Counted from the first letter of the stretch, positions 12,645 through 24,944 are shown. The stretch is 64,000 nt of DNA from Streptosporangiaceae bacterium (GCA_036501205.1 DASYAT010000066.1:42745-106744); one strand, 5' to 3'. Numbers and translations are program-made. Notes: generated by a model from the letters alone, not told the origin.

Positions 12645-13115
12645 CTAGCCGATGCCGCGCAGCACCAGCGCGGTGTCGAGAGCGGCGATCACTGCCTCCC
12701 AGCCCTTGTCTTCCTTGCTGTCGGCGCCCCCGCTTCGCTCGATCGCCTGCTCGATCGTGTCGCAGGTCAGCACTCCGTTGCCGACCGGGGTGCCGGTGTC
12801 AAGCGCCACCCGGGCCAGCCCGTAGGTGACCGCATCACAGACGTAGTCGAAGTGCGGGGTGCCGCCCCTGATCACGGCGCCGAGGCACGCCACCGCGTCG
12901 TGCTTGCGGGCCAGCGCGGCGGCGACCACCGGCAACTCGACCGCCCCGGCTACCCGCACCAGGGACGGCGAGTCAATGCCGCACGCTTTCGCCGCCGCCA
13001 GCGCCCGGTTCACCAGGGCGTCGGTGATCGCCGCGTTCCACCTGGTGGCCACGATGGCCACGGTCAGGCCGGCGGCCGCGACCGGCTCGGCGTCGGGCCG
13101 GCCGGTCCCGCTCAC
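12645..13115 (-). CDS. ribH: 6,7-dimethyl-8-ribityllumazine synthase
   Basis: ..[53 protein letters not shown].. are canonical RibH motifs. Confidence 0.95.
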
Positions 13116-14509
13116 CGGTTGCCTGCCCCGTTGCCAGCCGACCCGTTGCCAGTCGACCCGTTGCCAGTCGACGCTGGCTCGCCGGCCCCCGTGGTGGTGG
13201 CAGATTCGGTCAGCTCGATCAGGTGGCCAAGCCGGTCTCGCTTGGCGATCAGGTACCGCAGGTTGTGCGGCGTCGCGCTAACCGGCAACGAGACGGTGCC
13301 GGTCACGTCAAGGCCGAAGTCGGCCAGCCCCTTGATCTTGTCCGGGTTGTTGGTGAGCAGCCGCAGCGAGCTGACCCCGAGGTCGGCGAGCATCTGCGCG
13401 CCGGTCGAGTACTCGCGTGCGTCAACCGGGAAGCCGAGTTCGGTGTTGGCGTCGACGGTATCGGCCCCGGCGTCCTGCAGCTGGTACGCCCGCAGCTTGC
13501 TGAGCAGGCCGATCCCCCGGCCCTCGTGCCCGCGCAGGTAAAGCACGATGCCCGCGCCCTCGGCGGCGATGGCGGCCATCGCGGCGTTCAGCTGGGTACC
13601 GCAGTCACACCGTTGCGAGCCGAGCACGTCGCCGGTGAGGCACTCAGAGTGCATCCGCACCAGCACGTCGGGCCGTGATGGATCGCCGACCGCGCCGTGT
13701 TTGCCAGCACCGGTACGGTCGGCGGACGGCAGTCCGCCGACCGTACCTACATCGCCGAGCACGAGCGCGACGTGCTCGGTGCCGTCCAGGTTGTTGAGAT
13801 AGCCGACCGCGGTCCAGTGCCCGTACTCGTTGGGCACCATGGTCTGGACCACCCGGGTGACCATCTGCTCGCAGTGCCGCCGGTACTCGATCAGCTGCGC
13901 GATCGAGATCAGCGGCAGTCCGTGTTCGTCGGCGAACGCGCGTAGCCCTGGCAGCCTGGTCATCGTCCCGTCATCGTTGACCACCTCGGCGAGAACTCCG
14001 GCGGGCGACAGCCCGGCCAGCCGGGCCAGGTCGACCGCCGCCTCGGTGTGACCGGGCCGGCGAAGCACGCCGCCCGGCATGTAGCGGAGCGGGAAAACGT
14101 GACCTGGCCGCACCAGCTCGTAAGGCTCGGTCGCCGAGTCGACCAGTCGCCGTACCGTCTTGCTCCGGTCGGCGGCCGAGATCCCGGTGGTCACGCCATC
14201 GCGGGCGTCCACGCTGACCGTGAACGCGGTCCGCATCCGCTCGTTGTTCTGCGTGGTCATCAGCGGCAACTGGAGCCGGTCAAGCTCCTCGCCCAGCATC
14301 GGCACGCAGATGACCCCGCTGGTGTGCCTGATCATGAACGCCAGCAGCGCAGGAGTCGCCTTGCCGGCCGCGAAGATGATGTCGCCTTCGTTCTCCCGGT
14401 CGGCGTCATCGACCACCACGACGGCCCGTCCGGCCGCGATCTCCGCAACCGCGCGCTCCACCTCATCGAGCTGGACGCCGTCGACCACCGCCTGGCCTGG
14501 CCCGGTCAT
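13112..14509 (-). CDS. ribBA: bifunctional 3,4-dihydroxy-2-butanone-4-phosphate synthase / GTP cyclohydrolase II
   Basis: DRENEGD and HTEA motifs mark the RibB half. [16 protein letters not shown] marks the RibA half. The C-terminal tail is repetitive: [15 protein letters not shown]. Confidence 0.95.
13127..13171 (-). repeat. 3 x 15-nt in-frame tandem repeat in the ribBA 3' tail
   Basis: cccgttgccag(c/t)cga occurs three times in direct succession. Confidence 0.85.
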
Positions 14510-15126
14510 CGGGCATCCCTCGCCATCAGCCGCTCGACGTATTTGGCGATCACGTCGACCTCGATGTTCACCACGGCGCCGACTGCGCTGTGGCCGAGCG
14601 TGGTCCGCGCCAGGGTTTCCGGGATCAGGCTGACCTCGAACCAGCTGCCGCCATCATCGTCGAACACAGAATCACCGAGTTCGGAAACCGTAAGGCTGAC
14701 ACCGTCGACGGCCACCGAGCCCTTCTTCGCTATATAGCGCATGAGCGCCGGCATAGTAGAGATTCGCAAGACATGCCAGCGATCGGCCGGCCGGCTTTCG
14801 ATCACCACGCCGGTGCCGTCGACATGACCCTGGACGATGTGGCCGTCAAGCCGTCCGCCAGCGGCGACTGGGCGCTCGAGGTTGACCGGGCGGCCTGGCG
14901 CCAGGCCGCCGAGGCTGGTCCTGGCCAGCGTCTCGCCCATCACGTCAGCGGTGAACTCACCCTCGGCCAGGCTCGTCACGGTCACGCACACGCCGTTGAC
15001 AGCGATCGAACTACCTTGGGCGACGCCAGTCGTGGCGAGCGTGCCGCGCACGGCCAGCTTGGCTGAATCGCCCAGCCGGTCGATGCCAGTGACCTCGCCG
15101 AGTTCTTCTACGATTCCGGTGAACAT
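14506..15126 (-). CDS. ribE: riboflavin synthase
   Basis: [12 protein letters not shown].. is the canonical N-terminus. The start is set at ATG 15126 rather than the track start at 15201. Confidence 0.95.
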
Positions 15127-15271
15127 CTGCGCCTCTCCTCGAAACCTGTCCTGTCCTTCAGGCTCCGGGGATGCGCGATGAGACGCGCTATCGCGGCCCA
15201 AGGCGACCGCCGAAACGGGCGCGCCGCCGGGTGAGATCCCACCTTCTGGACCTTCCGGCGTGGCCTGCGAG

Positions 15272-15513: not shown

Positions 15514-16857
15514 TCATGCCTGGCGCGGCGCACCGCGGCGTGACAGGACATCGACGCCTGCTGCCGCTAGCAGTACCGCGGCGACCACGACATCAATCCA
15601 CTCGCTCGACACGCCTAGCAAGTAGAGGCCGTTGTAGATGCCACCGATCACCAGGCCGCCGAGTACACCGTGGATGGTCTTGCCCCGGCCGCCGAAGAGA
15701 CTGGTGCCACCGATGACGGCGGCGGCGATCGCGAGCAGCACGTAGCTGTTGGCGGACTTGATGATGTTGGTGGTCAGCGAGACCTGCCAGGAAGCGAACA
15801 GGACGCCAGCGATTCCGGAGGTCAGGCCGGCGAGAACGAAACCCAAGGTTCGGACGCCGGGCAAGCTGACTCCGGCTCGGCGGGCCGCCTCGGGGTTGCC
15901 GCCGATGGCGTACACATAGCGGCCGAAGCGGGTTCGCTGTAGCAGGACCGTCCAGCCAGCGAGCACGACCAGGACGATCACGATGATGTAGGGAACTCCC
16001 TCGATCGTCCCGGAGTGGGCTCGGTTGACGTTGCAGATGGCGACGAGCGCGACTCCCGCCACCGCCATGAGAACGATCTTCATCGCGGTGAGGCTGCGCG
16101 GCGGAGTCTCCAGGCCGTGGCGGCGCCTGCGGGCGGCCTGCGTCCAGAGCCCGGTGCCAGCGGCTCCGACCAGGACGACGAGCAAAACCCAGCTGGTCAC
16201 CGGGCCGATCTGTCCCCAGAAGATGTCATAGAGGACCACCTCGTTGGTGAACCGGGAGTTGCCGATCCCGGCCAGCGACCCGCCGAGGACGATGATCGAC
16301 ACTCCCTCCAGGATCAGCAACCCGCCGAGAGTGACTATGAACGAGGGCATCTTGAGCCGGGCCACGAGTGTGCCCTGAATGGCGCCCCAGGCGGAGCAGG
16401 CGAGCAAGGCCGCTATGATCGCCGCCCACCACGGCCAGTTCGCGCCGTTTGGCTGCACAAGCTCGACGACCACGACGCTGCCAAGCACCATGACCAGGCC
16501 AACGGAGAGGTCAACCTCCGCCAGGAGCAGCACGAAGATCTCGGCCATCGCCAGCACCATGTACACGGTGCTCTGCTCGAAGAGGTTGACCAGGTTCTGC
16601 GGCGACAGGAACTTCGAGTTCGTGATCTGGAAGCTGATGGCGACCACCACGATGGCCATGACCACGGGCAGTACACCGCTGTTGCCGCTGCGAACCCGGA
16701 GCCACCAGGCCCTGGCGTACTGGCCAAGCGACTGAGCGACGAGTTCGGGCGGGACGTCAGTCTCGGCGACCTCAGGGGCGGCGGTGAGGTCAATCGCCAT
16801 CCCGGCGTCCTGCGTCGCGCTCTCTTCCGAATCCGTCGTCACAGGGATGTCAGACAC
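15514..16857 (-). CDS. sugar ABC transporter permease (CUT2, XylH-like), copy 2
   Basis: 447 aa with multiple TM segments. The N-terminal cytosolic extension carries ..SLGQYARAWWLRVRSGNSGVLPV.., as in actinobacterial XylH-type permeases. Confidence 0.85.
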   Translation of the reverse strand: MSDIPVTTDSEESATQDAGMAIDLTAAPEVAETDVPPELVAQSLGQYARAWWLRVRSGNSGVLPVVMAIVVVAISFQITNSKFLSPQNLVNLFEQSTVYMVLAMAEIFVLLLAEVDLSVGLVMVLGSVVVVELVQPNGANWPWWAAIIAALLACSAWGAIQGTLVARLKMPSFIVTLGGLLILEGVSIIVLGGSLAGIGNSRFTNEVVLYDIFWGQIGPVTSWVLLVVLVGAAGTGLWTQAARRRRHGLETPPRSLTAMKIVLMAVAGVALVAICNVNRAHSGTIEGVPYIIVIVLVVLAGWTVLLQRTRFGRYVYAIGGNPEAARRAGVSLPGVRTLGFVLAGLTSGIAGVLFASWQVSLTTNIIKSANSYVLLAIAAAVIGGTSLFGGRGKTIHGVLGGLVIGGIYNGLYLLGVSSEWIDVVVAAVLLAAAGVDVLSRRGAPRQA

Positions 16858-18184
16858 GGGTCACGCTCCCACCTCCGCGCCGTGACAGCACGTCAACCAT
16901 CACTGCTCCCAGGAGCACACCTCCGGGCACGATGTATGCCAGCGGCGTGGACAGTTCTCCCAGGTTGAGAAGGGACACGCCGTAGGCTATGCCGCCGATG
17001 AGCAAGCCGCCGAGAACACCGTGGATCGCCTTGCCCCGGCCGCCGAAGAGGCTGACGCCGCCGATGACGGCAGCGGCCACCGCGTACAGGACGAGTTGGC
17101 CGGGGTCGGCCGTGTTAGTGCTGTACTCACCGAAGAAGAAGGAGCCGAGCAGAATTCCGCCGAGACCGGCGGTCGCGGAGCACAACGCGAAGGCCCAGGT
17201 ACGGATACCAGCGAGGCTGACGCCGGCTCGGCGGGCCGCTTCTGGATTGCCTCCGATGGCATAGAGATAGCGACCGAATCGGGTCCGCTGGAGCACGAGC
17301 GTCCAACCGCCGAGGACGGCCAGGACGATCGGGATCACCCAGGGAATCCCCTCGATCGCCACCAGTGCCCTTCCGCGGTTGATCGAGCAGATCAGTACCA
17401 CTGCCACCCCGACCAGCGCCACCAGCCCGATTCTGATTATCGTCAGGCTGACCGGAGGAGCCGCCAGGCCCTGGCGTCGCCTCGCGGCCGCGCGCAGCCA
17501 GAGCATCGCGCCCGCGATCGCGACCACCACCGCGAGGCCGACCCAGCCGACGACGGGGGCGATCAGCCCCTGGACCATGTCGTAGATGACGCGCTGGTTG
17601 GAGTCCGTAGAGCTGACGCTTACCGAGCCATCGGCTCCGCCGAGCATGACGATGAGAATCCCCGAGAACAGAAGAAACCCGCCCAAGGTCACGACGAACG
17701 ACGGGATCTTGAGCCGAGCAGTCAATGTCCCCTGGAGGGCACCGATGACACCGCAGGCAACGAGCGCGGCGAGCACCGCTGCCCACCACGGCCAGCCCGG
17801 CCCGGGCTGCTGGACGAGCTTGAAGGCGATCACTCCGCCGATCATCGCTACCGCGCCGACCGAGAGGTCGATCTCTCCGAGTAGAAGCACCACCGTCTCG
17901 GCCACCGCCAGCACCATGTACACGGTGCTCAGCCCGAAGACGTAGACGAGGTTGCTCGGACGCAGGAAGGCGTGCTCGGGGGTGATGATCTCGAAGACGA
18001 CGGCGACCAGCACCATGGCCAAGATGACAGGCAGGACACCGCTGTTGCCGCTGCGGACACCGGCCCATGAGGCCCGCACGTACCGGCCGAGCGACTGGGA
18101 GACGTACTCGGGCGGGACAAGGGCCGCTGCGGCCTGGGTGGCGTCGGGCGCCGCGGTTGGGGTCTGGGCGGGGTCCGCGGTCAC
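16850..18184 (-). CDS. sugar ABC transporter permease (CUT2, XylH-like), copy 1
   Basis: 444 aa, a paralogue of the downstream permease, which it overlaps by 8 nt. Confidence 0.85.
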   Translation of the reverse strand: MTADPAQTPTAAPDATQAAAALVPPEYVSQSLGRYVRASWAGVRSGNSGVLPVILAMVLVAVVFEIITPEHAFLRPSNLVYVFGLSTVYMVLAVAETVVLLLGEIDLSVGAVAMIGGVIAFKLVQQPGPGWPWWAAVLAALVACGVIGALQGTLTARLKIPSFVVTLGGFLLFSGILIVMLGGADGSVSVSSTDSNQRVIYDMVQGLIAPVVGWVGLAVVVAIAGAMLWLRAAARRRQGLAAPPVSLTIIRIGLVALVGVAVVLICSINRGRALVAIEGIPWVIPIVLAVLGGWTLVLQRTRFGRYLYAIGGNPEAARRAGVSLAGIRTWAFALCSATAGLGGILLGSFFFGEYSTNTADPGQLVLYAVAAAVIGGVSLFGGRGKAIHGVLGGLLIGGIAYGVSLLNLGELSTPLAYIVPGGVLLGAVMVDVLSRRGGGSVTRV

Positions 18185-18211: not shown

Positions 18212-19039
18212 TCAGCCCTCGCTACTGGCAGATCCGGCCGGCTCGAACGGCCGCCCGCTGAAGCTGCCCGTCGTCATGTACTCGACCACGCTTTGCCGGT
18301 CGAAGTCGGACGCCGGCCCTTGTGCCACCATTCTTCCCAGGTACAGTACCGCGATCCGGTCGGCGATCTCGAAGACGTCGTTCAGGTTGTGGGAGATCAC
18401 CATCACCGCCAGCCCGCGGTCCCTGAGCCGCTTGACCAGGTCAAGCACGGTCCGGGTCTGTACCACCCCGAGCGCGGCGGTGGGCTCGTCCAGCAGAACC
18501 AGCTTGGAGTTCCACATCACCGCCTTGGCCACCGCCACGGCCTGCCGCTGACCTCCGGATAGAGATGCCACTGGCTGCCGGATCGAACGGACCGTGGTCA
18601 CGTGGAGCGTGCTGAGGGTCTCGGCCGCCTCACCTTCCATCGAGTCCTCGTCGAGCAGGCCGCGACGCAGGCGCTCCCGGCCGAGAAACATGTTCTGGAC
18701 GATGTCCAGGTTGTCGGCCAGCGCCAGATCCTGGTAGACGGTCTCGATCCCCAGCGCTGAGGCGTCTCTGGTGCTGCGGATGTGTACCGGTCGTCCCTCG
18801 AAGTAGACCTGACCATGATCTGGCTGGTGCACGCCGGCGATGGTGCGGGTGAGCACCGACTTACCGGCGCCGTTGTCACCGCACAGGCCGGTCACCTGGC
18901 CAGCGGGCAGGTCCAGGTCCACGCCGTAGAGCGCCTGGACGGGTCCGAAATGTTTGTCGATGCCCCGCAGCTTCAGCAGAGGTTCTGCCTCTTCGCTGCC
19001 GCGACTCGCGCCCTCCAGGGCGTCATTAATCTCAGTCAT
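18212..19039 (-). CDS. sugar ABC transporter ATP-binding protein (single NBD, XylG-like)
   Basis: Motifs: Walker A GDNGAGKS, signature LSGGQRQAVAVAKA, Walker B LVLLDEPT and H-loop SHN. The likely start is ATG 19039 (MTEINDAL); the track start is 19126. Confidence 0.9.
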   Translation of the reverse strand: MTEINDALEGASRGSEEAEPLLKLRGIDKHFGPVQALYGVDLDLPAGQVTGLCGDNGAGKSVLTRTIAGVHQPDHGQVYFEGRPVHIRSTRDASALGIETVYQDLALADNLDIVQNMFLGRERLRRGLLDEDSMEGEAAETLSTLHVTTVRSIRQPVASLSGGQRQAVAVAKAVMWNSKLVLLDEPTAALGVVQTRTVLDLVKRLRDRGLAVMVISHNLNDVFEIADRIAVLYLGRMVAQGPASDFDRQSVVEYMTTGSFSGRPFEPAGSASSEG

Positions 19040-19212
19040 CGTGAAGACTCGTCCGTCGCCTTGCCTAGGTTGGGCTCTCGCCGCTCCAGCATCCCGGCAC
19101 CGCAGAGCATAGTTGTGCTCCTCCATTCCCGCCTTTGAGCCCGTCCGGGGTTCTCACCGTCCGCCCGAGAGCGGACGGTGAGAACCCGTTGGGATCTTTC
19201 AGGTCAGATGGG

Positions 19213-20538
19213 TTACTGGATCCCATCCTTGGTGCACAGAGTCGCACCCGCGATCGCGCAGATGGCCGAAGCGGGGTCGAAGCCGTCCTTGACGACCGTC
19301 GACTCCATGTTGGCCTCGTTCACCCACACCGGGGTCAGCAGGGACGCCGGCTCGGTGACGCTGGAGTCGGCCGGGTCAACGGTCTTCGCGTTCAGCAGGT
19401 CCGCCGGCGGCTTGTCGCCCGCCAGCAGGATCGTGGCCAGAGACACGGCGTCCTGTGCCTCCTTGTAAACGGCCTTGTAGACGGAACCGCACTGGTAACC
19501 CTCAAGGATCCAGGCCATGCCCTGAGCCGTGGCGTCCTGGCCGGTGGTCGGCACCTTGAAGGGCTTGATTCCGTCACCCTTGAGGTCGGTGATCACCGCA
19601 TTGGCGAGCCCGTCGTTGGCCTCGATGGTGGCGTTGATCGTCTTGTGAGCGGTGAATTCCTGCTGGAAGATGGTGCCGCCCTTGGTGTTGTCCCAGCCGG
19701 GGGCGAAGTTCTCGCCTACCAGCTTGGCACCGGTACTGCTGGTCGCGCCGGCGTTGACCGACTTGGCTTCCTGACCCCAGACAACCTTGTTGTAACCCTC
19801 GGCAAACGAGATGGCGTTGGGGTCGGTGTCCTCGCCGCCATTCAGGACGAAGACCTGAGGCTTGGAGACCTTCCATGACGACAGGCAGGTATTGAAGCCC
19901 TGGCCGATCAGCTCGCCAACGAGTTCGTTGTTGAAGCTGACGTAGTAGGTGCTGGAGCCCTCGAAGATGGCGCGGTCGTAGGCGATCACGGTGACGCCCT
20001 TGGACTCGGCCAGCTTCGCGATCGCTACGCCGGTGGGGCCATCAAGCGGGGTCACGAGGAGGATCTTCGCACCCAGGTTGATGTCGGCGGTGGCGTCGTC
20101 GAGCTCGGTCGCGTCGCTGCCCTGCGCGTTGTCGATGCGGTACTGCGCCTGCGTGTATCCGGCGTCGGCAAAGGCGTCGTTCAGGTACGGCTGGTCGAAA
20201 TCAACCCACCGCGTCGACGACGTCGTGTCGGGCAGGATCACTCCCACCTGCAGGCTGTTGTCACCCTTGGTTGCGAACTCCGTCAGCGGCTTGAACTGTG
20301 ACATCGTCGACGCGATGTCAACGGAAAATGAGCTGATGCCCAAGCCCGCCGGAACCTTGTTCGAACCCTTTGCCGCCGATCCCGACCCCGTTCCCGACGA
20401 CGAGTTCGACGAGCACGCCGCGGCCACTAGGCACACAGTCGCAGCCAGGCCAACCCAGCCCACTGCGCGGAAGCGACGAGACGTGCCGTGGCCGTGCGAA
20501 CGGGAGGGCTGACCTCCACTTCTGTTACTCAGTCCCAT
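19213..20538 (-). CDS. sugar ABC transporter substrate-binding lipoprotein (periplasmic-binding-protein type I, monosaccharide class)
   Basis: Lipobox LVAAAC, then ..GVILPDTTSSTRWVDFDQPYL..VTVIAYDRAI.., typical of XylF/ChvE-like binding proteins. Confidence 0.85.
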   Translation of the reverse strand: MGLSNRSGGQPSRSHGHGTSRRFRAVGWVGLAATVCLVAAACSSNSSSGTGSGSAAKGSNKVPAGLGISSFSVDIASTMSQFKPLTEFATKGDNSLQVGVILPDTTSSTRWVDFDQPYLNDAFADAGYTQAQYRIDNAQGSDATELDDATADINLGAKILLVTPLDGPTGVAIAKLAESKGVTVIAYDRAIFEGSSTYYVSFNNELVGELIGQGFNTCLSSWKVSKPQVFVLNGGEDTDPNAISFAEGYNKVVWGQEAKSVNAGATSSTGAKLVGENFAPGWDNTKGGTIFQQEFTAHKTINATIEANDGLANAVITDLKGDGIKPFKVPTTGQDATAQGMAWILEGYQCGSVYKAVYKEAQDAVSLATILLAGDKPPADLLNAKTVDPADSSVTEPASLLTPVWVNEANMESTVVKDGFDPASAICAIAGATLCTKDGIQ

Positions 20539-20644
20539 CTGATCACCTCAGTTAACGTGCTTGACTCCGCAGCCCGTGTCTGCGAGAGCCAAGCGTTCAC
20601 CCTGCTTGGCAGGTCAAACCCTAGGACTTAGCACGGAAACACGG

Positions 20645-20682
20645 CGTTAACGTTTGCCTGGCCCCGTTAATAAACCGTTAAC
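20645..20682. promoter_or_regulatory. CGTTAA(C/T) repeat cluster in the transporter promoter region (candidate response-regulator sites)
   Basis: CGTTAAC at 20645, CGTTAAT at 20665 and CGTTAAC at 20676 (spacings 20 and 11 nt). A further GTTAAC at 20551-20556 is next to the RBS of the binding-protein gene. Confidence 0.3.
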
Positions 20683-20750: not shown

Positions 20751-21455
20751 CTAGTCAGATGCCAGCCGGTAGCCAGCTCGTGGCTGGGTCAGGATCAGCG
20801 GCGGTCCGCCATCATCTTCGAGCTTGGCGCGCAGCCTGCGCACGTAGACGCGGACGTACTCAGTCTCCGTCTCGTAGCCGTGACCCCATACCCGGCGCAA
20901 CAGGTGCGCGTGGGTCAGGAGCTTGCCCCGGTTCGTGACGAGCTCTCTCAGCAGCGCGAACTCAGTCGGCGTCAGGTGCACCCGTTCGCTTTGCCTGAAC
21001 ACCTCCTCCTTGGCCAGGTCGATCCGCAGTTCGCCGATCACGATCAGCTGCGGCGGCATGTCGCTCGGCGCCTGCGGCCTGGTGCGGCGCAGCGTGGCGC
21101 TGATCCTGGCGAGCAGTTCTTCGATGCTGAACGGCTTGGTCATGTAGTCGTCCGCGCCCATATTGAGCGCCGTCACCTTGTCACGCTCGCCGCCCCGGGC
21201 CGACACGACGATGATCGCGACGCCTGACCGCTCGCGCATCTGCCTGCACAGCTCGAAGCCGTCAACCTCGGGCAGCATCAAATCGAGCAGCACGATGTCG
21301 GGCGCTTCGGTGTCCAGCAGTTGCAGCGCGCGTGATCCGTCGGCGGAGACCACGGTGTCGAATCCGCGCACGGCCAGGTTGGACCTGATGAGGTCGACGA
21401 TGTTCAGATCGTCTTCGACTACGAGCGCGCGTGTCCTAGCGACGTGCTCGGCCAC
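20751..21455 (-). CDS. OmpR-family response regulator
   Basis: Receiver domain (..ALVVEDD..VLLDLMLPEVDG..ADDYMTKPF..) plus a winged-helix C-terminus (..VHLTPTEFALLREL..GYRL). The GTG start overlaps the end of the kinase ORF by 20 nt, with GGAGGAGG upstream. Confidence 0.9.
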   Translation of the reverse strand: MAEHVARTRALVVEDDLNIVDLIRSNLAVRGFDTVVSADGSRALQLLDTEAPDIVLLDLMLPEVDGFELCRQMRERSGVAIIVVSARGGERDKVTALNMGADDYMTKPFSIEELLARISATLRRTRPQAPSDMPPQLIVIGELRIDLAKEEVFRQSERVHLTPTEFALLRELVTNRGKLLTHAHLLRRVWGHGYETETEYVRVYVRRLRAKLEDDGGPPLILTQPRAGYRLASD

Positions 21456-23916
21456 GCTCGACCGCCTCCTCCTCGATTGGCAGCGTGACGGCGAAGCTCG
21501 CTCCCGCCGCTGATGGCTTCACCTCGAGTCGGCCGCCGTGCGCGGTCACGATACCGCGCGTGATCGACAAGCCGAGACCTGCGCCTCCGGTCTTGCTGCG
21601 GCGCAACCGCCTCGGTTCGAAGGGCGCGACGGCGACGTCGGCCGGCAAGCCGACCCCCTCGTCGGCGACCGTGATCGACACCTGAGCGCGTCGGGCCGGC
21701 TCGGCCCGCACGACGACCTCGGTACCGGGCGGGTTATGGCCGATGGCGTTCGCTAGCAGGTTAACGAACACCTGCTCAAGCCGGTCGTGGTCGGCCCAGA
21801 TCACCGGCAGGTCAGGCGCGCAGTCGATCTGCACCATGTGCCTTCCGTCCGGCGGCAGGCACGCCGCCGCCGCTTCCAGTACCAGCTTGATATCGCACCA
21901 GTCAGGCTGCAGCCGCAGGATGCCGAGTTCGATGGCGGAGAAATCGAGCAGGTCGTCAACAAGCCGGCCAAGCCGGGCCGACTCGGCCGCGATCCTGGTC
22001 AGGAAACGGTGCTGCGATTCGGCATCCCAGGTGACATCGGGCTGCAGCAGGCTGGAGGCGTAACCGCGGATAGCCGTCAGCGGCGTTCGCAGCTCGTGGC
22101 TGAGCCTGGACAAGAAGTCCCGCTGCAGCTCCTGTGACCGGCGCAGCGCCGTCGCTTCCTGCTGCGCGAGTGCGGTCTGCTCGCGTTCGAGCGCCAGCCT
22201 GAGCGAGTGGGCGGCGTCTTCGACCAGGACAGTTGCCGCCGCGGTCGGCGGTTCTGTACGCCAGCTGGCGAGCAGCGCGCTCCGCCCGCCGGCTGCGGTG
22301 AAGGTCACGGCGAGATTCTGCCGACCGTCATCGCAGCTGACCCATTGAGCCGTGCCGTGCTCCGCCCCGTCTGTCGCCGGCGGCGAGATCAGCCGGGCCG
22401 CACAGAGTTCGACCGCTTCCGCCCGGCCAGGACCGGCTGGCGAGGCGCTGCCGCGACATTGCGGTTCACCCCCGTCCGGGCAGGTCATCAACGTCACCTC
22501 GGAGGCCTGCAGCCCGCGGCACAGTGATTGAAGTGCCAGCGGTATCCCTTCGCTGACCGGGATGGGACCGGCCAGTATCTCGAGCACCTCCCTGATCGTC
22601 TCAAGCACCCGGTTGCGCTCGGTGACCTCGTTGAGCAACTGGTCTCGCTCGATCGCGCTCGCCGCATAGCCGGCGTAGACGGTAACCAGCTCAAGCTGGT
22701 CGCGCTCGGGCCGACCTGGCGTGGCACCGAACCCGGTGATGACGCCGGCCAGCCCGTCCCTCGTCAGCACGGGCACCGACCAGGAGCTCGCGATCCCGGT
22801 AACGGCCGCCAGCCCATTGATCAGCTTCCAGTCAGCCTGCGCGTTCTCGGCTATCACGGTCCGCTCGGTCGCGGCGGCCAGGCCAGCCGGACCGCCGCTG
22901 CTGCCGATCGGCAGCCTTTCCAGGCGGCTAAGCAGTGCGTCGGGCAGCCCAAGCGATGCCGCGCAGGCCAGCTCGCCGCCGACCGCGAGGTGCATGCACA
23001 ACCGCTCGGATCCAAGCGCCGCGCCCAGCGCGGACAAGATCAGCGACAGGCTCGACGACGGATCGGCCGACACCAGCTTGCCGGTCAGGCCGTGCAACCT
23101 GGTGAGCTGGCGTCGGGCCGAGGAGTCGACTTCCTGACCGGATAGCAGCGCTATGACCTCGTCAGGGTGGACCGCCGCCGGGCTGACCTCAGCCACGATC
23201 TGGCCGTGCCTGAGTATCACTATCCGGCTGGCCATCCGGAACATCAGGTCAAGATCGTGAGTTGCGATCACCACCGTGGTCTGGTTCCGCACCTCAGCGA
23301 TGAGTTCCTCGAACTGAATTGCGTGCTTGATGCTGAGCGATTTCGTCGGCTCGTCGAGCAGCAGCAGCGGTGGCCGGTCGGCCAACGCTCTGGCGATCGC
23401 CACGAGCTGGCGCTGCCCACCGGACAGTGACCGAATGCTGCGGGTAGTGTCAGTCAGCGGAATTCCGAGCCCGGACAGGACGGCCGACGCATCGGCGTGC
23501 AGCTTGACTTCGGAAAGCAGCTGGCGGCGACGCTCACGACCCAGCATCAAGTTCGATGCGATGTCGAGGTTGTCGCAGAGCGACAGGTCCTGCCAGACCA
23601 CGCCGACGCCGCACCTCGCGACCGCGAGCGGATCAGCGGGCAGCGGCCGGCCGCGAAATAGAATCTCACCGCGCGAGGGCTTGATGTCGCCGCCGAGCGT
23701 ACGCAGCAGGGTCGTCTTACCGACGCCGCTCTCCCCCGCCAGCGCGACGACCTCGCCCGGCATGATCTTGAGATCTACTCCGTCCAGCGCGCGCACCGAT
23801 CCGAAGCTGACGCCCAGGCGTGACACCGTAACGAGAGGCTCAGCGGGCGTCCGGTCCGCCAGCTCGGTCGGCGGAACATTTGCCAGCGCCAAGTCAGGCA
23901 ATGCGGTCATACCCAC
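21436..23916 (-). CDS. fusion protein: ABC-type ATPase domain - GAF region(s) - histidine kinase (HisKA + HATPase_c)
   Basis: One uninterrupted 826-codon ORF. NBD motifs: GESGVGKTT, LSGGQRQLVAIARAL, LLLLDEPT, ATHD. Then a GAF-like segment (..SLSLILSALGAALGSERLCMHLA..SWSVPVL..GVITGF..). Then the H-box SHELRTPLTAIRGY, the N-box NLLANAIGHN, and the G-boxes DEGVGLP and GGAGLGLSI. I saw no transmembrane segment. Confidence 0.8.
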   Translation of the reverse strand: MGMTALPDLALANVPPTELADRTPAEPLVTVSRLGVSFGSVRALDGVDLKIMPGEVVALAGESGVGKTTLLRTLGGDIKPSRGEILFRGRPLPADPLAVARCGVGVVWQDLSLCDNLDIASNLMLGRERRRQLLSEVKLHADASAVLSGLGIPLTDTTRSIRSLSGGQRQLVAIARALADRPPLLLLDEPTKSLSIKHAIQFEELIAEVRNQTTVVIATHDLDLMFRMASRIVILRHGQIVAEVSPAAVHPDEVIALLSGQEVDSSARRQLTRLHGLTGKLVSADPSSSLSLILSALGAALGSERLCMHLAVGGELACAASLGLPDALLSRLERLPIGSSGGPAGLAAATERTVIAENAQADWKLINGLAAVTGIASSWSVPVLTRDGLAGVITGFGATPGRPERDQLELVTVYAGYAASAIERDQLLNEVTERNRVLETIREVLEILAGPIPVSEGIPLALQSLCRGLQASEVTLMTCPDGGEPQCRGSASPAGPGRAEAVELCAARLISPPATDGAEHGTAQWVSCDDGRQNLAVTFTAAGGRSALLASWRTEPPTAAATVLVEDAAHSLRLALEREQTALAQQEATALRRSQELQRDFLSRLSHELRTPLTAIRGYASSLLQPDVTWDAESQHRFLTRIAAESARLGRLVDDLLDFSAIELGILRLQPDWCDIKLVLEAAAACLPPDGRHMVQIDCAPDLPVIWADHDRLEQVFVNLLANAIGHNPPGTEVVVRAEPARRAQVSITVADEGVGLPADVAVAPFEPRRLRRSKTGGAGLGLSITRGIVTAHGGRLEVKPSAAGASFAVTLPIEEEAVERGRARR

Positions 23917-23987
23917 ATTGTGCTACCTATCCCAAGGTCAGCGACCAGACCCGCCATCCCCAAGCAGCCAGACCAGCCCAACCGTAA

Positions 23988-24257
23988 GGAACCAGACCCA
24001 CCCCAACAACATTCAGCGCCCAAGCGCCGACAGCGGCCTCCGAGGCCCGGAAAGGAACCGGACCACCCCAAACAACATTCAGCACCCGAACCCGGCAGGG
24101 ACTCCGAGGATCGGAAAGGAACCAGACCCACCCCAACAACATTCGGCGCCCAAGCGCCGGCAGCGGCCTCCGGAAATCGGAACGGAACCGGACCCACCCC
24201 AAACTACATTCGGCGCCCAAGCGCCGGCGGGGGGCTCCGGGGGGTCGTCCCCCCGCG
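23988..24257. repeat. four tandem ~65-bp repeats (MIRU/VNTR-like) between ung and the kinase gene
   Basis: Units start at 23988, 24054, 24118 and 24184. Each begins GGAACC(A/G)GACC(C)ACCCCAA(A)C(A/T)ACATTC(A/G)GC. Three contain the mini-hairpin GGCGCCCAAGCGCC. The last unit ends in the GGGGGGTCGTCCCCCC hairpin. Confidence 0.85.
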
Positions 24258-24266
24258 ACAAAAAAA

Positions 24267-24944
24267 TCAGGGCAGCTTCCAGTCCACTTCGGTGCCGCCA
24301 ACTCGCTCCAGGGCGGTGCTGGCCTGGCTGAACGGCCGGGAGCCGAAGAAGCCGGAGTCGGCCGACATAGGGCTCGGGTGCGCCGATTCGATCCGCGGAA
24401 TGTCGCCGAGCAGGGGCGCAAGATTGCGGGCGTCCCGGCCCCACAAGATCGCTACCAGCGGGCCCTGGCGGGCCGCGAGGGCCTTGATCGCCTGCTCGGT
24501 CACCGCTTCCCAGCCCTTGCCTCGATGCGAGCCTGGCTTGCCCGGCTGCACGGTCAGCACCCGGTTGAGCATCAGCACGCCCCGCTCGGTCCACGGGGTG
24601 AGGTCACCATTTGATGGTGTCGGATGGCCGAGATCCGCGGTGTACTCGCGGAAGATGTTCTGCAAGCTGCGCGGTACGGGCCGCACGTCCGGCGCGACCG
24701 AGAAGCTCAGCCCGACCGGATGCCCTGGCGTCGGGTACGGGTCCTGGCCGACGATCAGGACCCGGACGTCATCGAACGGCTGCTTGAAAGCGCGCAGCAC
24801 ATTCTCGCCGGAGGGCAGGTACGCCCGGCCGGCCGCAATCTCGGCCCGCAGGAAATCACCCGCCTCGGCGATCTTGCCGGCCACCGGCTCGAGCGCTCGC
24901 GCCCAGCCTGGATCGATGATTTCTTCGAGCGGGCGTCGGGTCAC
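24267..24944 (-). CDS. ung: uracil-DNA glycosylase (family 1)
   Basis: ..[24 protein letters not shown].. and ..HPSPMS.. are canonical UNG motifs. Confidence 0.95.

Follow-up and report, generated by a model that had tools for sequence, protein, structure and literature searches.

An importer-type ABC ATPase domain fused to a soluble histidine kinase beside a CUT2 sugar importer in uncultured Actinomycetota

A 64,000-nucleotide stretch of DNA from a Streptosporangiaceae bacterium (GCA_036501205.1 DASYAT010000066.1:42745-106744), referred to here in its full length as the window, encodes a histidine kinase in which a complete nucleotide-binding domain (NBD) of an ATP-binding cassette (ABC) importer is fused covalently to two GAF-type domains and a kinase core. 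The analysis establishes this protein as part of a cytoplasmic two-component system devoted to the CUT2 sugar importer whose genes lie immediately downstream, with an intact importer-type NBD as its input domain. The fusion is real and is conserved in many uncultured soil actinobacteria.

The kinase gene (21436..23916, minus strand) is a single uninterrupted open reading frame (ORF) of 826 codons, as seen in the ORF list, the translation and the Pfam domain assignments. A sequence-only reading of the window had described a continuous 826-codon ORF at this place without stating its strand; the ORF is real and lies on the minus strand, and every motif quoted from it was recovered in the translation (GESGVGKTT, VVWQDLSL, LSGGQRQ, LLLLDEPT, ATHD, SHELRTPLTAIRGY, NLLANAIGHN, DEGVGLP and GGAGLGLSI). 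The check by domain profiles that had been suggested likewise returned ABC_tran, GAF_2, HisKA and HATPase_c in Pfam. The ORF opens with GTG, and the consensus of the homologue family begins with MTA, so that translation probably begins two codons further in, at an ATG at 23910.

It had also been suggested that a frameshift might join two genes in this region, and comparison with homologues dismisses that worry. An assembly or sequencing artefact that joined an ATPase gene to a separate GAF-kinase gene has next to no chance of being correct, because the same continuous, one-frame architecture recurs across hundreds of assemblies made independently, in different projects and from different taxa, and because the junction (amino acids 251-300) is among the best-conserved parts of the kinase (column conservation 0.88-0.93), which is the opposite of what a mis-join would be expected to leave. 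A frameshift or mis-join was rejected on these grounds. Broken ORFs were observed in two long-read metagenome-assembled genomes (record names MFD...), affecting the kinase of locus L011 (10001-12404) and the binding-protein and ATPase genes of locus L002 (13379-15757), each of which reads as overlapping ORFs. Indel errors are the likeliest cause, in preference to real pseudogenes, and such breaks are the reverse of artefactual joining.

Architecture and spread of the fused kinase

In a search of 5.8 billion proteins, 117 of the best 120 homologues were 780-920 amino acids long and carried the same Pfam domains, at 63-93% identity to the window kinase; their NCBI label was only 'ATP-binding cassette domain-containing protein'. 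After clustering at 50% identity, about 25 representatives matched in one stretch, from roughly amino acid 20 to 818, down to 35-36% identity, and ABC_tran, GAF, HisKA and HATPase_c were present in all ten of the representatives scanned at this level. A profile built from 15 distant members retrieved 4148 proteins at E <= 1e-50, the best 120 of which were full-length fusions. Sources with a name were metagenome-assembled genomes of Streptosporangiaceae, Acidimicrobiales, Nitriliruptoraceae, 'Actinomycetes' and other Actinomycetota, with no cultured isolate among the source names listed. A contig search of genomes with a single kinase protein yielded 13 family loci, all close relatives, and a metagenome profile scan that relied on generic patterns (H-box, Walker B) gave three family loci among 80. 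The sequence-only reading knew of no characterized NBD-kinase fusion, and none was found in the full-text literature, a search that covered few subscription journals and so amounts to absence of evidence; the single mention of ABC_tran that was followed there proved to be a domain-count table only. The family of NBD-histidine-kinase fusions appears large and entirely uncharacterized.

The domains of the kinase follow one another in the order NBD, helical linker, GAF, GAF/PHY-like domain, HisKA and HATPase_c, all encoded on the minus strand. The NBD (23131..23844, amino acids 25-262) is of CUT2 type with a QDLxLCDNLDxxxNLxLGRE segment, and its ABC_tran match (PF00005) covers amino acids 44-191 at 1.6e-31, scoring 110.1 bits against a cut-off of 25. 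It is joined to the first GAF domain by a linker (23065..23130, amino acids 263-284) with a mean column conservation of 0.88-0.93, in which AlphaFold2 predicted a helix at 267-283, yet with a predicted local distance difference test score (pLDDT) below 50. The first GAF domain (22648..23064, amino acids 285-423) was modeled at pLDDT 80-93 and matched GAF_2 at 1.3e-10 (42 bits against a gathering cut-off of 28.6) as well as GAF (30.9 bits against 22.4). What had been called a poorly defined second sensory region folds in AlphaFold2 as a GAF/PHY-like alpha/beta domain (22249..22569, amino acids ~450-556), an assignment based on the predicted secondary structure and on Foldseek. It is the least conserved part of the kinase (conservation 0.48-0.7) and is flanked on both sides by long predicted helices that lead into the DHp domain.

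The kinase core consists of HisKA (DHp; 21925..22125, amino acids 598-664; Pfam 6.7e-19, 68 bits), with the phospho-acceptor His607 and a SHELRTP motif that was invariant across 118 sequences, and of HATPase_c (21472..21792, amino acids 709-815; 2e-20, 74 bits) with its N, G1, F and G2 boxes. By these motifs, and by the regulator gene that overlaps its own, the protein is a HisKA-class sensor histidine kinase with an OmpR-family partner. The highest NCBIfam scores of the core were those of the PnpS and PhoR models, both far below the equivalog cut-offs. Foldseek searches with the whole chain placed full-length bacteriophytochrome kinases first, with an integrative WalK-YycH model and ABC NBDs behind them; among the PDB sequence and fold matches listed, none covered the NBD and the kinase core together.

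The kinase had been read as lacking a transmembrane segment, and the hydropathy scan bears this out. The highest 19-residue Kyte-Doolittle window reached 1.51 and lies within the GAF fold, which marks the kinase as soluble, and the idea of a hidden transmembrane segment was dropped. Lacking such a segment, the kinase cannot sense an external sugar directly.

One relative without the NBD was recovered. P0167 (L040 827-2584) is a protein of 585 amino acids with a GAF-GAF-HisKA-HATPase core that is 46% identical to amino acids 262-816 of the window kinase. The gene upstream of it is unrelated to ABC ATPases, and the short contig shows no downstream context. Its existence suggests that the GAF-GAF-kinase core is a module to which an NBD was added. 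A second candidate for such a relative, P0134, was set aside as a fragment at a contig end.

The fused NBD and its CUT2 importer

All residues that define a working ABC ATPase are in place in the fused NBD: the A-loop F38, Walker A G61-T69, the Q-loop Q109, LSGGQ at 164-168, the Walker B pair D188-E189 and the H-loop H220. No variation was seen in the Walker A Lys, the Q-loop Gln, the Walker B Asp-Glu or the H-loop His among 117 close and 15 distant homologues, and very little in LSGGQ; within the close family the A-loop Phe38 was nearly invariant as well. The description of the NBD as intact thus extends to the whole family, in which the catalytic residues are kept, and judged by this conservation, ATP binding, sandwich dimerization and hydrolysis all appear to be under selection.

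The best-conserved stretch of the NBD (0.90) is VVWQDLxLCDNLDxxxNLxLGRE, which comprises the Q-loop and the first segment of the helical subdomain. By hand count, about 14 of its 23 positions were conserved and identical in the clades of both paralogues, the fused NBDs and the partner ATPases, compared with about a quarter of positions over the whole NBD. Arg72, five residues past the Walker A Lys, was invariant in the close family and was Arg or Lys in 15 of 17 diverse members; we take it to be the equivalent of Arg47 of Escherichia coli MalK, which presumably lies at the same distance from the Walker A Lys. A conserved Arg of MalK, for which the source gives no residue number, forms a salt bridge with the Glu of the EAA motif (PMC6906923).

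As claimed, the fused NBD is a paralogue of the stand-alone ATPase downstream, to which it is 42% identical over 226 residues (E = 9e-51). Among its five best NCBIfam matches, three were to the N-terminal halves of the CUT2 ATPases YtfR, AraG and XylG, at scores far below the equivalog cut-offs. In a neighbor-joining tree the fused NBDs from 17 loci clustered together, with one (L034) just outside; the group adjoins a clade of single-NBD partner ATPases, and both fall within CUT2. Going by its nearest relatives and by the Q-loop/helical-subdomain signature, the fused NBD is of CUT2 type (Transporter Classification 3.A.1.2). It differs from a free-standing CUT2 subunit in the ~560 residues of GAF-GAF-kinase that are attached covalently at its C-terminal end.

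Gene order in the window is as previously noted, with kinase, OmpR-type regulator, binding protein, ATPase and two permeases in succession. The response regulator (20751..21455, minus; 234 amino acids, Pfam Response_reg and Trans_reg_C) belongs to the OmpR/PhoB family and overlaps the kinase gene by 20 nt (21436-21455), and an OmpR-type regulator comes next to the kinase gene, downstream of it, at every related locus. The importer genes, also on the minus strand, encode a sugar-binding lipoprotein (19213..20538; Peripla_BP_4, XylF/ChvE-like but below the equivalog cut-offs), a stand-alone single-NBD CUT2 ATPase (18212..19126; maximal ORF of 304 amino acids), permease 1 (16850..18184, 444 amino acids) and, as the last gene of the unit, permease 2 (15514..16857, 447 amino acids), both permeases being GguB/XylH-like BPD_transp_2 proteins. 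The stand-alone ATPase likely starts at Met30 (19039), which gives 275 amino acids as in L001.

The prediction that the fusion would always neighbor a CUT2 importer with a single-NBD ATPase held in its first part and failed in its second. Kinase, regulator and then a CUT2 importer were adjacent in 25 of 25 related loci with downstream context. The partner ATPase had a single NBD in 20 of them (one fragmentary), with permeases of GguB/XylH size (406-450 amino acids), and a tandem NBD in three (L034, L038, L042); in the remaining two the contig stops past the binding-protein gene. Permeases in L034 and L038 are of RbsC size (~350 amino acids), and the one in L042 had an RbsC-like match only, with an ambiguous ORF call. 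In this sample, then, the linkage to CUT2 importers is strict and that to single-NBD ATPases is not. Since complete tandem ATPases are encoded in three loci, the NBD of the kinase cannot be the obligatory 'missing half' of the transporter, and this idea was abandoned.

Two tandem paralogous permease genes, ~55% identical, were observed in the window and in the seven closest loci (L001-L004, L010-L012). The more distant single-NBD-type loci L006-L009, L013, L031, L033, L036, L122 and L123 have a single permease, so the duplication is recent and specific to the sub-clade. The notion that the kinase NBD is matched to two different permeases was discarded, as the more distant clade has one. In L031 (16479-18134) and L033 (16185-18452) the importer is followed by a protein with FG-GAP/UnbV_ASPIC domains, a neighbor that may hint at the physiological context of the imported sugar.

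Possible routes from the NBD to the kinase

For the geometry of the dimer, the docking on the permease, the direction of regulation and the identity of the sugar, what follows is what we infer from the data above. We tentatively prefer, at somewhat less than an even chance, a model in which the kinase is an importer-type ATPase that carries GAF-GAF-kinase as a C-terminal regulatory domain and docks on the permease. The kinase would form a parallel dimer held by a helical spine through GAF, the GAF/PHY-like domain and DHp, with its two N-terminal NBDs side by side in a MalK-like geometry. This NBD pair would dock on the permease dimer, displacing or competing with the dimer of the free ATPase. 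Docking of the sugar-loaded binding protein from the outside would then bring about ATP-dependent closure of the pair, and its closing and opening would travel down the spine and switch the balance between kinase and phosphatase. The phosphorylated regulator would act on repeats with 11-bp spacing before the binding-protein gene and so set the expression of the importer. In this way the transporter would be the receptor of a kinase that itself lacks any membrane or extracellular part. A related claim, which we regard as possible but doubtful, is that the kinase acts as an alternative ATPase subunit, capping the permease dimer and hydrolyzing ATP in response to the sugar-loaded binding protein, possibly driving transport, with closure translated into kinase output.

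Conservation of the Q-loop and helical subdomain, the face on which docking would depend, is supportive of the preferred model and decides nothing, and several observations weigh against that model. Many importer NBDs have the N..LG.E helix, and its conservation may be a matter of fold and not of docking. Every locus with a visible ATPase gene encodes a separate ATPase, a complete tandem-NBD enzyme in L034, L038 and L042; the kinase NBD is therefore not the importer's sole engine and would have to compete with the importer's own ATPases for the permease. Fused NBDs are 36-50% identical to their own partners, no more than to the partners of other loci. This lack of excess similarity points to an old duplication, and recent gene conversion or copying from the partner was rejected on the same account. 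They also sit on longer branches than the partner ATPases in the NBD tree, and where the whole kinase is 35-47% identical to that of the window the partner ATPase is 57-66% identical, so that the fused NBDs are the faster-evolving of the two. AlphaFold2 modeled the full kinase at a mean pLDDT of 75 and a predicted template modeling score of 0.37, a low inter-domain confidence at which the domain geometry is unreliable, and the helical-subdomain segment 111-136 has a pLDDT below 50. Contact between NBD and permease is a prediction, if a plausible one, and a ligand of the GAF domains could be the real signal.

A further point on this side comes from position 118 of the kinase, where the three tandem-type loci replace D by G, T or S and so resemble their partners. 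If it covaried with the transporter, other kinases with S, G or T at this position should have tandem partners. This was not the case, as P0077, P0362 and P0335 have single-NBD partners that keep NLD.

Some of these observations also fit a kinase whose NBDs close on ATP and reopen once it is hydrolyzed, away from the transporter, as a free-standing ATP switch. Such a protein would sense energy charge or keep time, and would in this way gate a signal that reaches the GAF domains, such as a sugar metabolite inside the cell. Its only ties to the importer would be that of a regulator to its target operon and that of descent, the NBD having been copied from the importer. Conservation of every ATP-site and dimer-interface motif and the presence of two GAF-type ligand-binding folds are in keeping with this, as are the faster evolution of the fused NBD, the importers' possession of ATPases of their own, some of them tandem, and the missing covariation with the transporter. 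P0167 adds to the case, since it shares the GAF-GAF-kinase core without the NBD, so that the core can work alone. We nonetheless consider a free switch rather unlikely, because it leaves unexplained why conservation peaks in the Q-loop and helical subdomain, in common with the partner clade, and why the module kept beside a CUT2 importer at all 25 loci, which come from several actinobacterial classes, is an importer-type NBD and not some other nucleotide sensor.

A less probable arrangement still is one in which the NBD of the kinase pairs with the operon's ATPase in ATP-sandwich heterodimers, on or off the permease, through which the kinase would read idle versus engaged ATPase or enter mixed transporter complexes. 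The two NBDs are paralogues of one CUT2 sub-clade with matching signature, Walker and loop motifs, and in 20 of 23 typed loci the partner has a single NBD and must dimerize. In the other three, however, the NBDs of the tandem ATPase are already paired within one chain. The kinase itself, to judge from its HisKA/DHp domain, would be a homodimer that brings two identical NBDs together, and the fused NBD resembles its own partner no more than it does the partners of other loci.

Regulatory elements and flanking genes

Candidate regulator boxes were found in the 212-nt gap before the binding-protein gene (20632..20682, minus), as two direct-repeat pairs with 11-bp spacing: GTTAACGgttt / ATTAACGgggc and GTTAACGccgt / GTTTCCGtg. 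Tandem repeats spaced by 11 bp are the usual sites of OmpR/PhoB-family regulators, and we infer that the regulator would bind here. Of the eight DTTAACG matches across the 64 kb, five lie within 20551-20682, against 2.5 expected for the window as a whole; the five are on both strands, and two of them overlap at one palindromic site. The repeat block is kept in seven close loci, and the clade at 72% identity has a related block, GTTTACAGAAT / TTTCATGG ... GTTAACGACCGC / GTTCATGA. A scan for sigma-70 promoters was empty, which is uninformative for a high-GC actinobacterium.

In the 5' untranslated region of the binding-protein gene, a hairpin (GCCAAGC-AGGGTGAAC-GCTTGGC; 20588-20610, minus) was observed between the candidate boxes and the ribosome-binding site. 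It is kept with small changes in L001-L004 and L012 and less well in L010, and it matched no Rfam family.

The downstream boundary of the importer unit is set by a flavin mononucleotide (FMN) riboswitch (RF00050; 15269-15399, minus; 97 bits against a gathering cut-off of 66) directly past the last permease gene, since it opens the next operon. The genes beyond it, named from sequence, encode riboflavin synthase (14506-15201), RibBA (13112-14509) and lumazine synthase (12645-13115).

On its upstream side the kinase gene lies 350 nt away from a uracil-DNA glycosylase-like ORF (24267-24944, minus), a label that rests on the Pfam UDG match of its counterpart in L121. That locus (gene at 471-1148), whose kinase is 66% identical, also has this gene, so that some synteny reaches beyond the transporter unit. 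Between the kinase start and this ORF, at 23986-24239, lies a 66-bp tandem repeat of 3.9 copies with an 83% match. Three of the units hold a GC hairpin, CGGCGC-TTGG-GCGCCG, with a T-rich tail that was flagged as terminator-like, and the 12-nt core of this hairpin was absent elsewhere in the window and from 11 related loci. Stacked as they are, the repeats might terminate transcription of the upstream gene.

Comparison with known transporter-coupled systems

Coupling of sensing to a transporter is established for Bce modules, PhoR-PhoU-Pst, MalK-MalT and DctA-DcuS, in all of which the transporter and the signaling protein are separate, and the coupling step is hard to isolate for that reason. 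The window kinase has the engine domain of a transporter and the kinase in one soluble chain. If docking on the permease proves true, the kinase would offer a compact system for how the ATP-driven closing and opening of an NBD becomes a signal, would add the ABC ATPase domain to the input domains of histidine kinases, and would explain how a membrane-free kinase in abundant soil actinobacteria can sense an external sugar. Were it also an alternative ATPase subunit, it would be a covalently wired flux sensor, with an ABC importer as the receptor of a two-component system.

MalK of the E. coli MalFGK2 transporter, which acts with MalT, resembles the window kinase as an importer NBD with a C-terminal regulatory extension below the NBD pair. 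There the state of the transporter is reported to a transcription regulator, and docking of the binding protein drives closure of the NBDs (PMC6906923). MalK, however, sequesters a separate activator non-covalently and involves no kinase, whereas the window protein carries a covalent GAF-GAF-histidine kinase. It is also the only ATPase of its transporter, while the window importer has a separate ATPase too, and its transporter belongs to another importer family, with permeases of MalF/MalG type.

In Bce modules (BceAB with BceS/BceR), a kinase without a sensing domain of its own reads the activity of its cognate ABC transporter and controls the expression of that transporter (bioRxiv 10.1101/2020.02.28.969956). 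No NBD is fused to the kinase in these modules, whereas the window pairs a soluble kinase with a sugar importer. BceAB and BceS are separate proteins that touch in the membrane, in which BceS is embedded, and BceB is an FtsX-type permease for peptide antibiotics. The window permeases are instead BPD_transp_2 proteins, and the kinase is without a transmembrane segment.

The kinase of PstSCAB-PhoU-PhoR likewise lacks an external sensor and is informed from the cytoplasmic side of the state of an ABC importer (PMC9239213, PMC13577022). Coupling in that case runs through the adaptor PhoU and the PAS domain of PhoR, whereas in the window kinase it would run through the fused NBD. PhoR is also membrane-anchored. 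Scored against the corresponding family models, the window kinase reached 137 bits for TIGR02966 (cut-off 334) and 159 for PnpS (cut-off 400).

KdpD/KdpE combines an OmpR-family regulator with a histidine kinase whose added N-terminal domain is itself an enzyme, a serine kinase, and the transporter is controlled both transcriptionally and directly (PMC11018627). Pfam found no KdpD N-terminal, Usp or membrane domain in the window kinase, which has no transmembrane segment either. The N-terminal domain of KdpD is a nucleotide-binding P-loop domain and a GAF domain precedes its DHp; KdpD is anchored in the membrane, and the transporter that it serves is a P-type ATPase.

Kinases that depend on sugar-binding proteins, among them ChvE-VirA and the XylFII-LytS 'three-component' systems, have been reviewed (PMC8050422). 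They share with the window system the two-component control of a monosaccharide ABC importer of the same class, the binding protein and permeases of the window being ChvE/XylF- and GguB-like. Their kinases are membrane proteins that meet the binding protein outside the cell, whereas the window kinase is soluble and its transporter-derived part is the cytoplasmic ATPase domain.

Bacteriophytochromes share the GAF / PHY / DHp / CA helical spine and gave the best structural matches to the whole chain. They differ in sequence (17-19% identity), and the N-terminal module of the window kinase is an NBD. The match is one of fold only, as Pfam returned no PHY or PAS domain and a PAS-GAF bilin pocket is lacking. 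The window kinase lacks the defining features of each of the systems compared above and properly belongs only to the generic ABC-NBD, GAF and HisKA-kinase families. Transporter-coupled two-component sensing is already known, and the fusion of an NBD to a kinase adds a new form of it.

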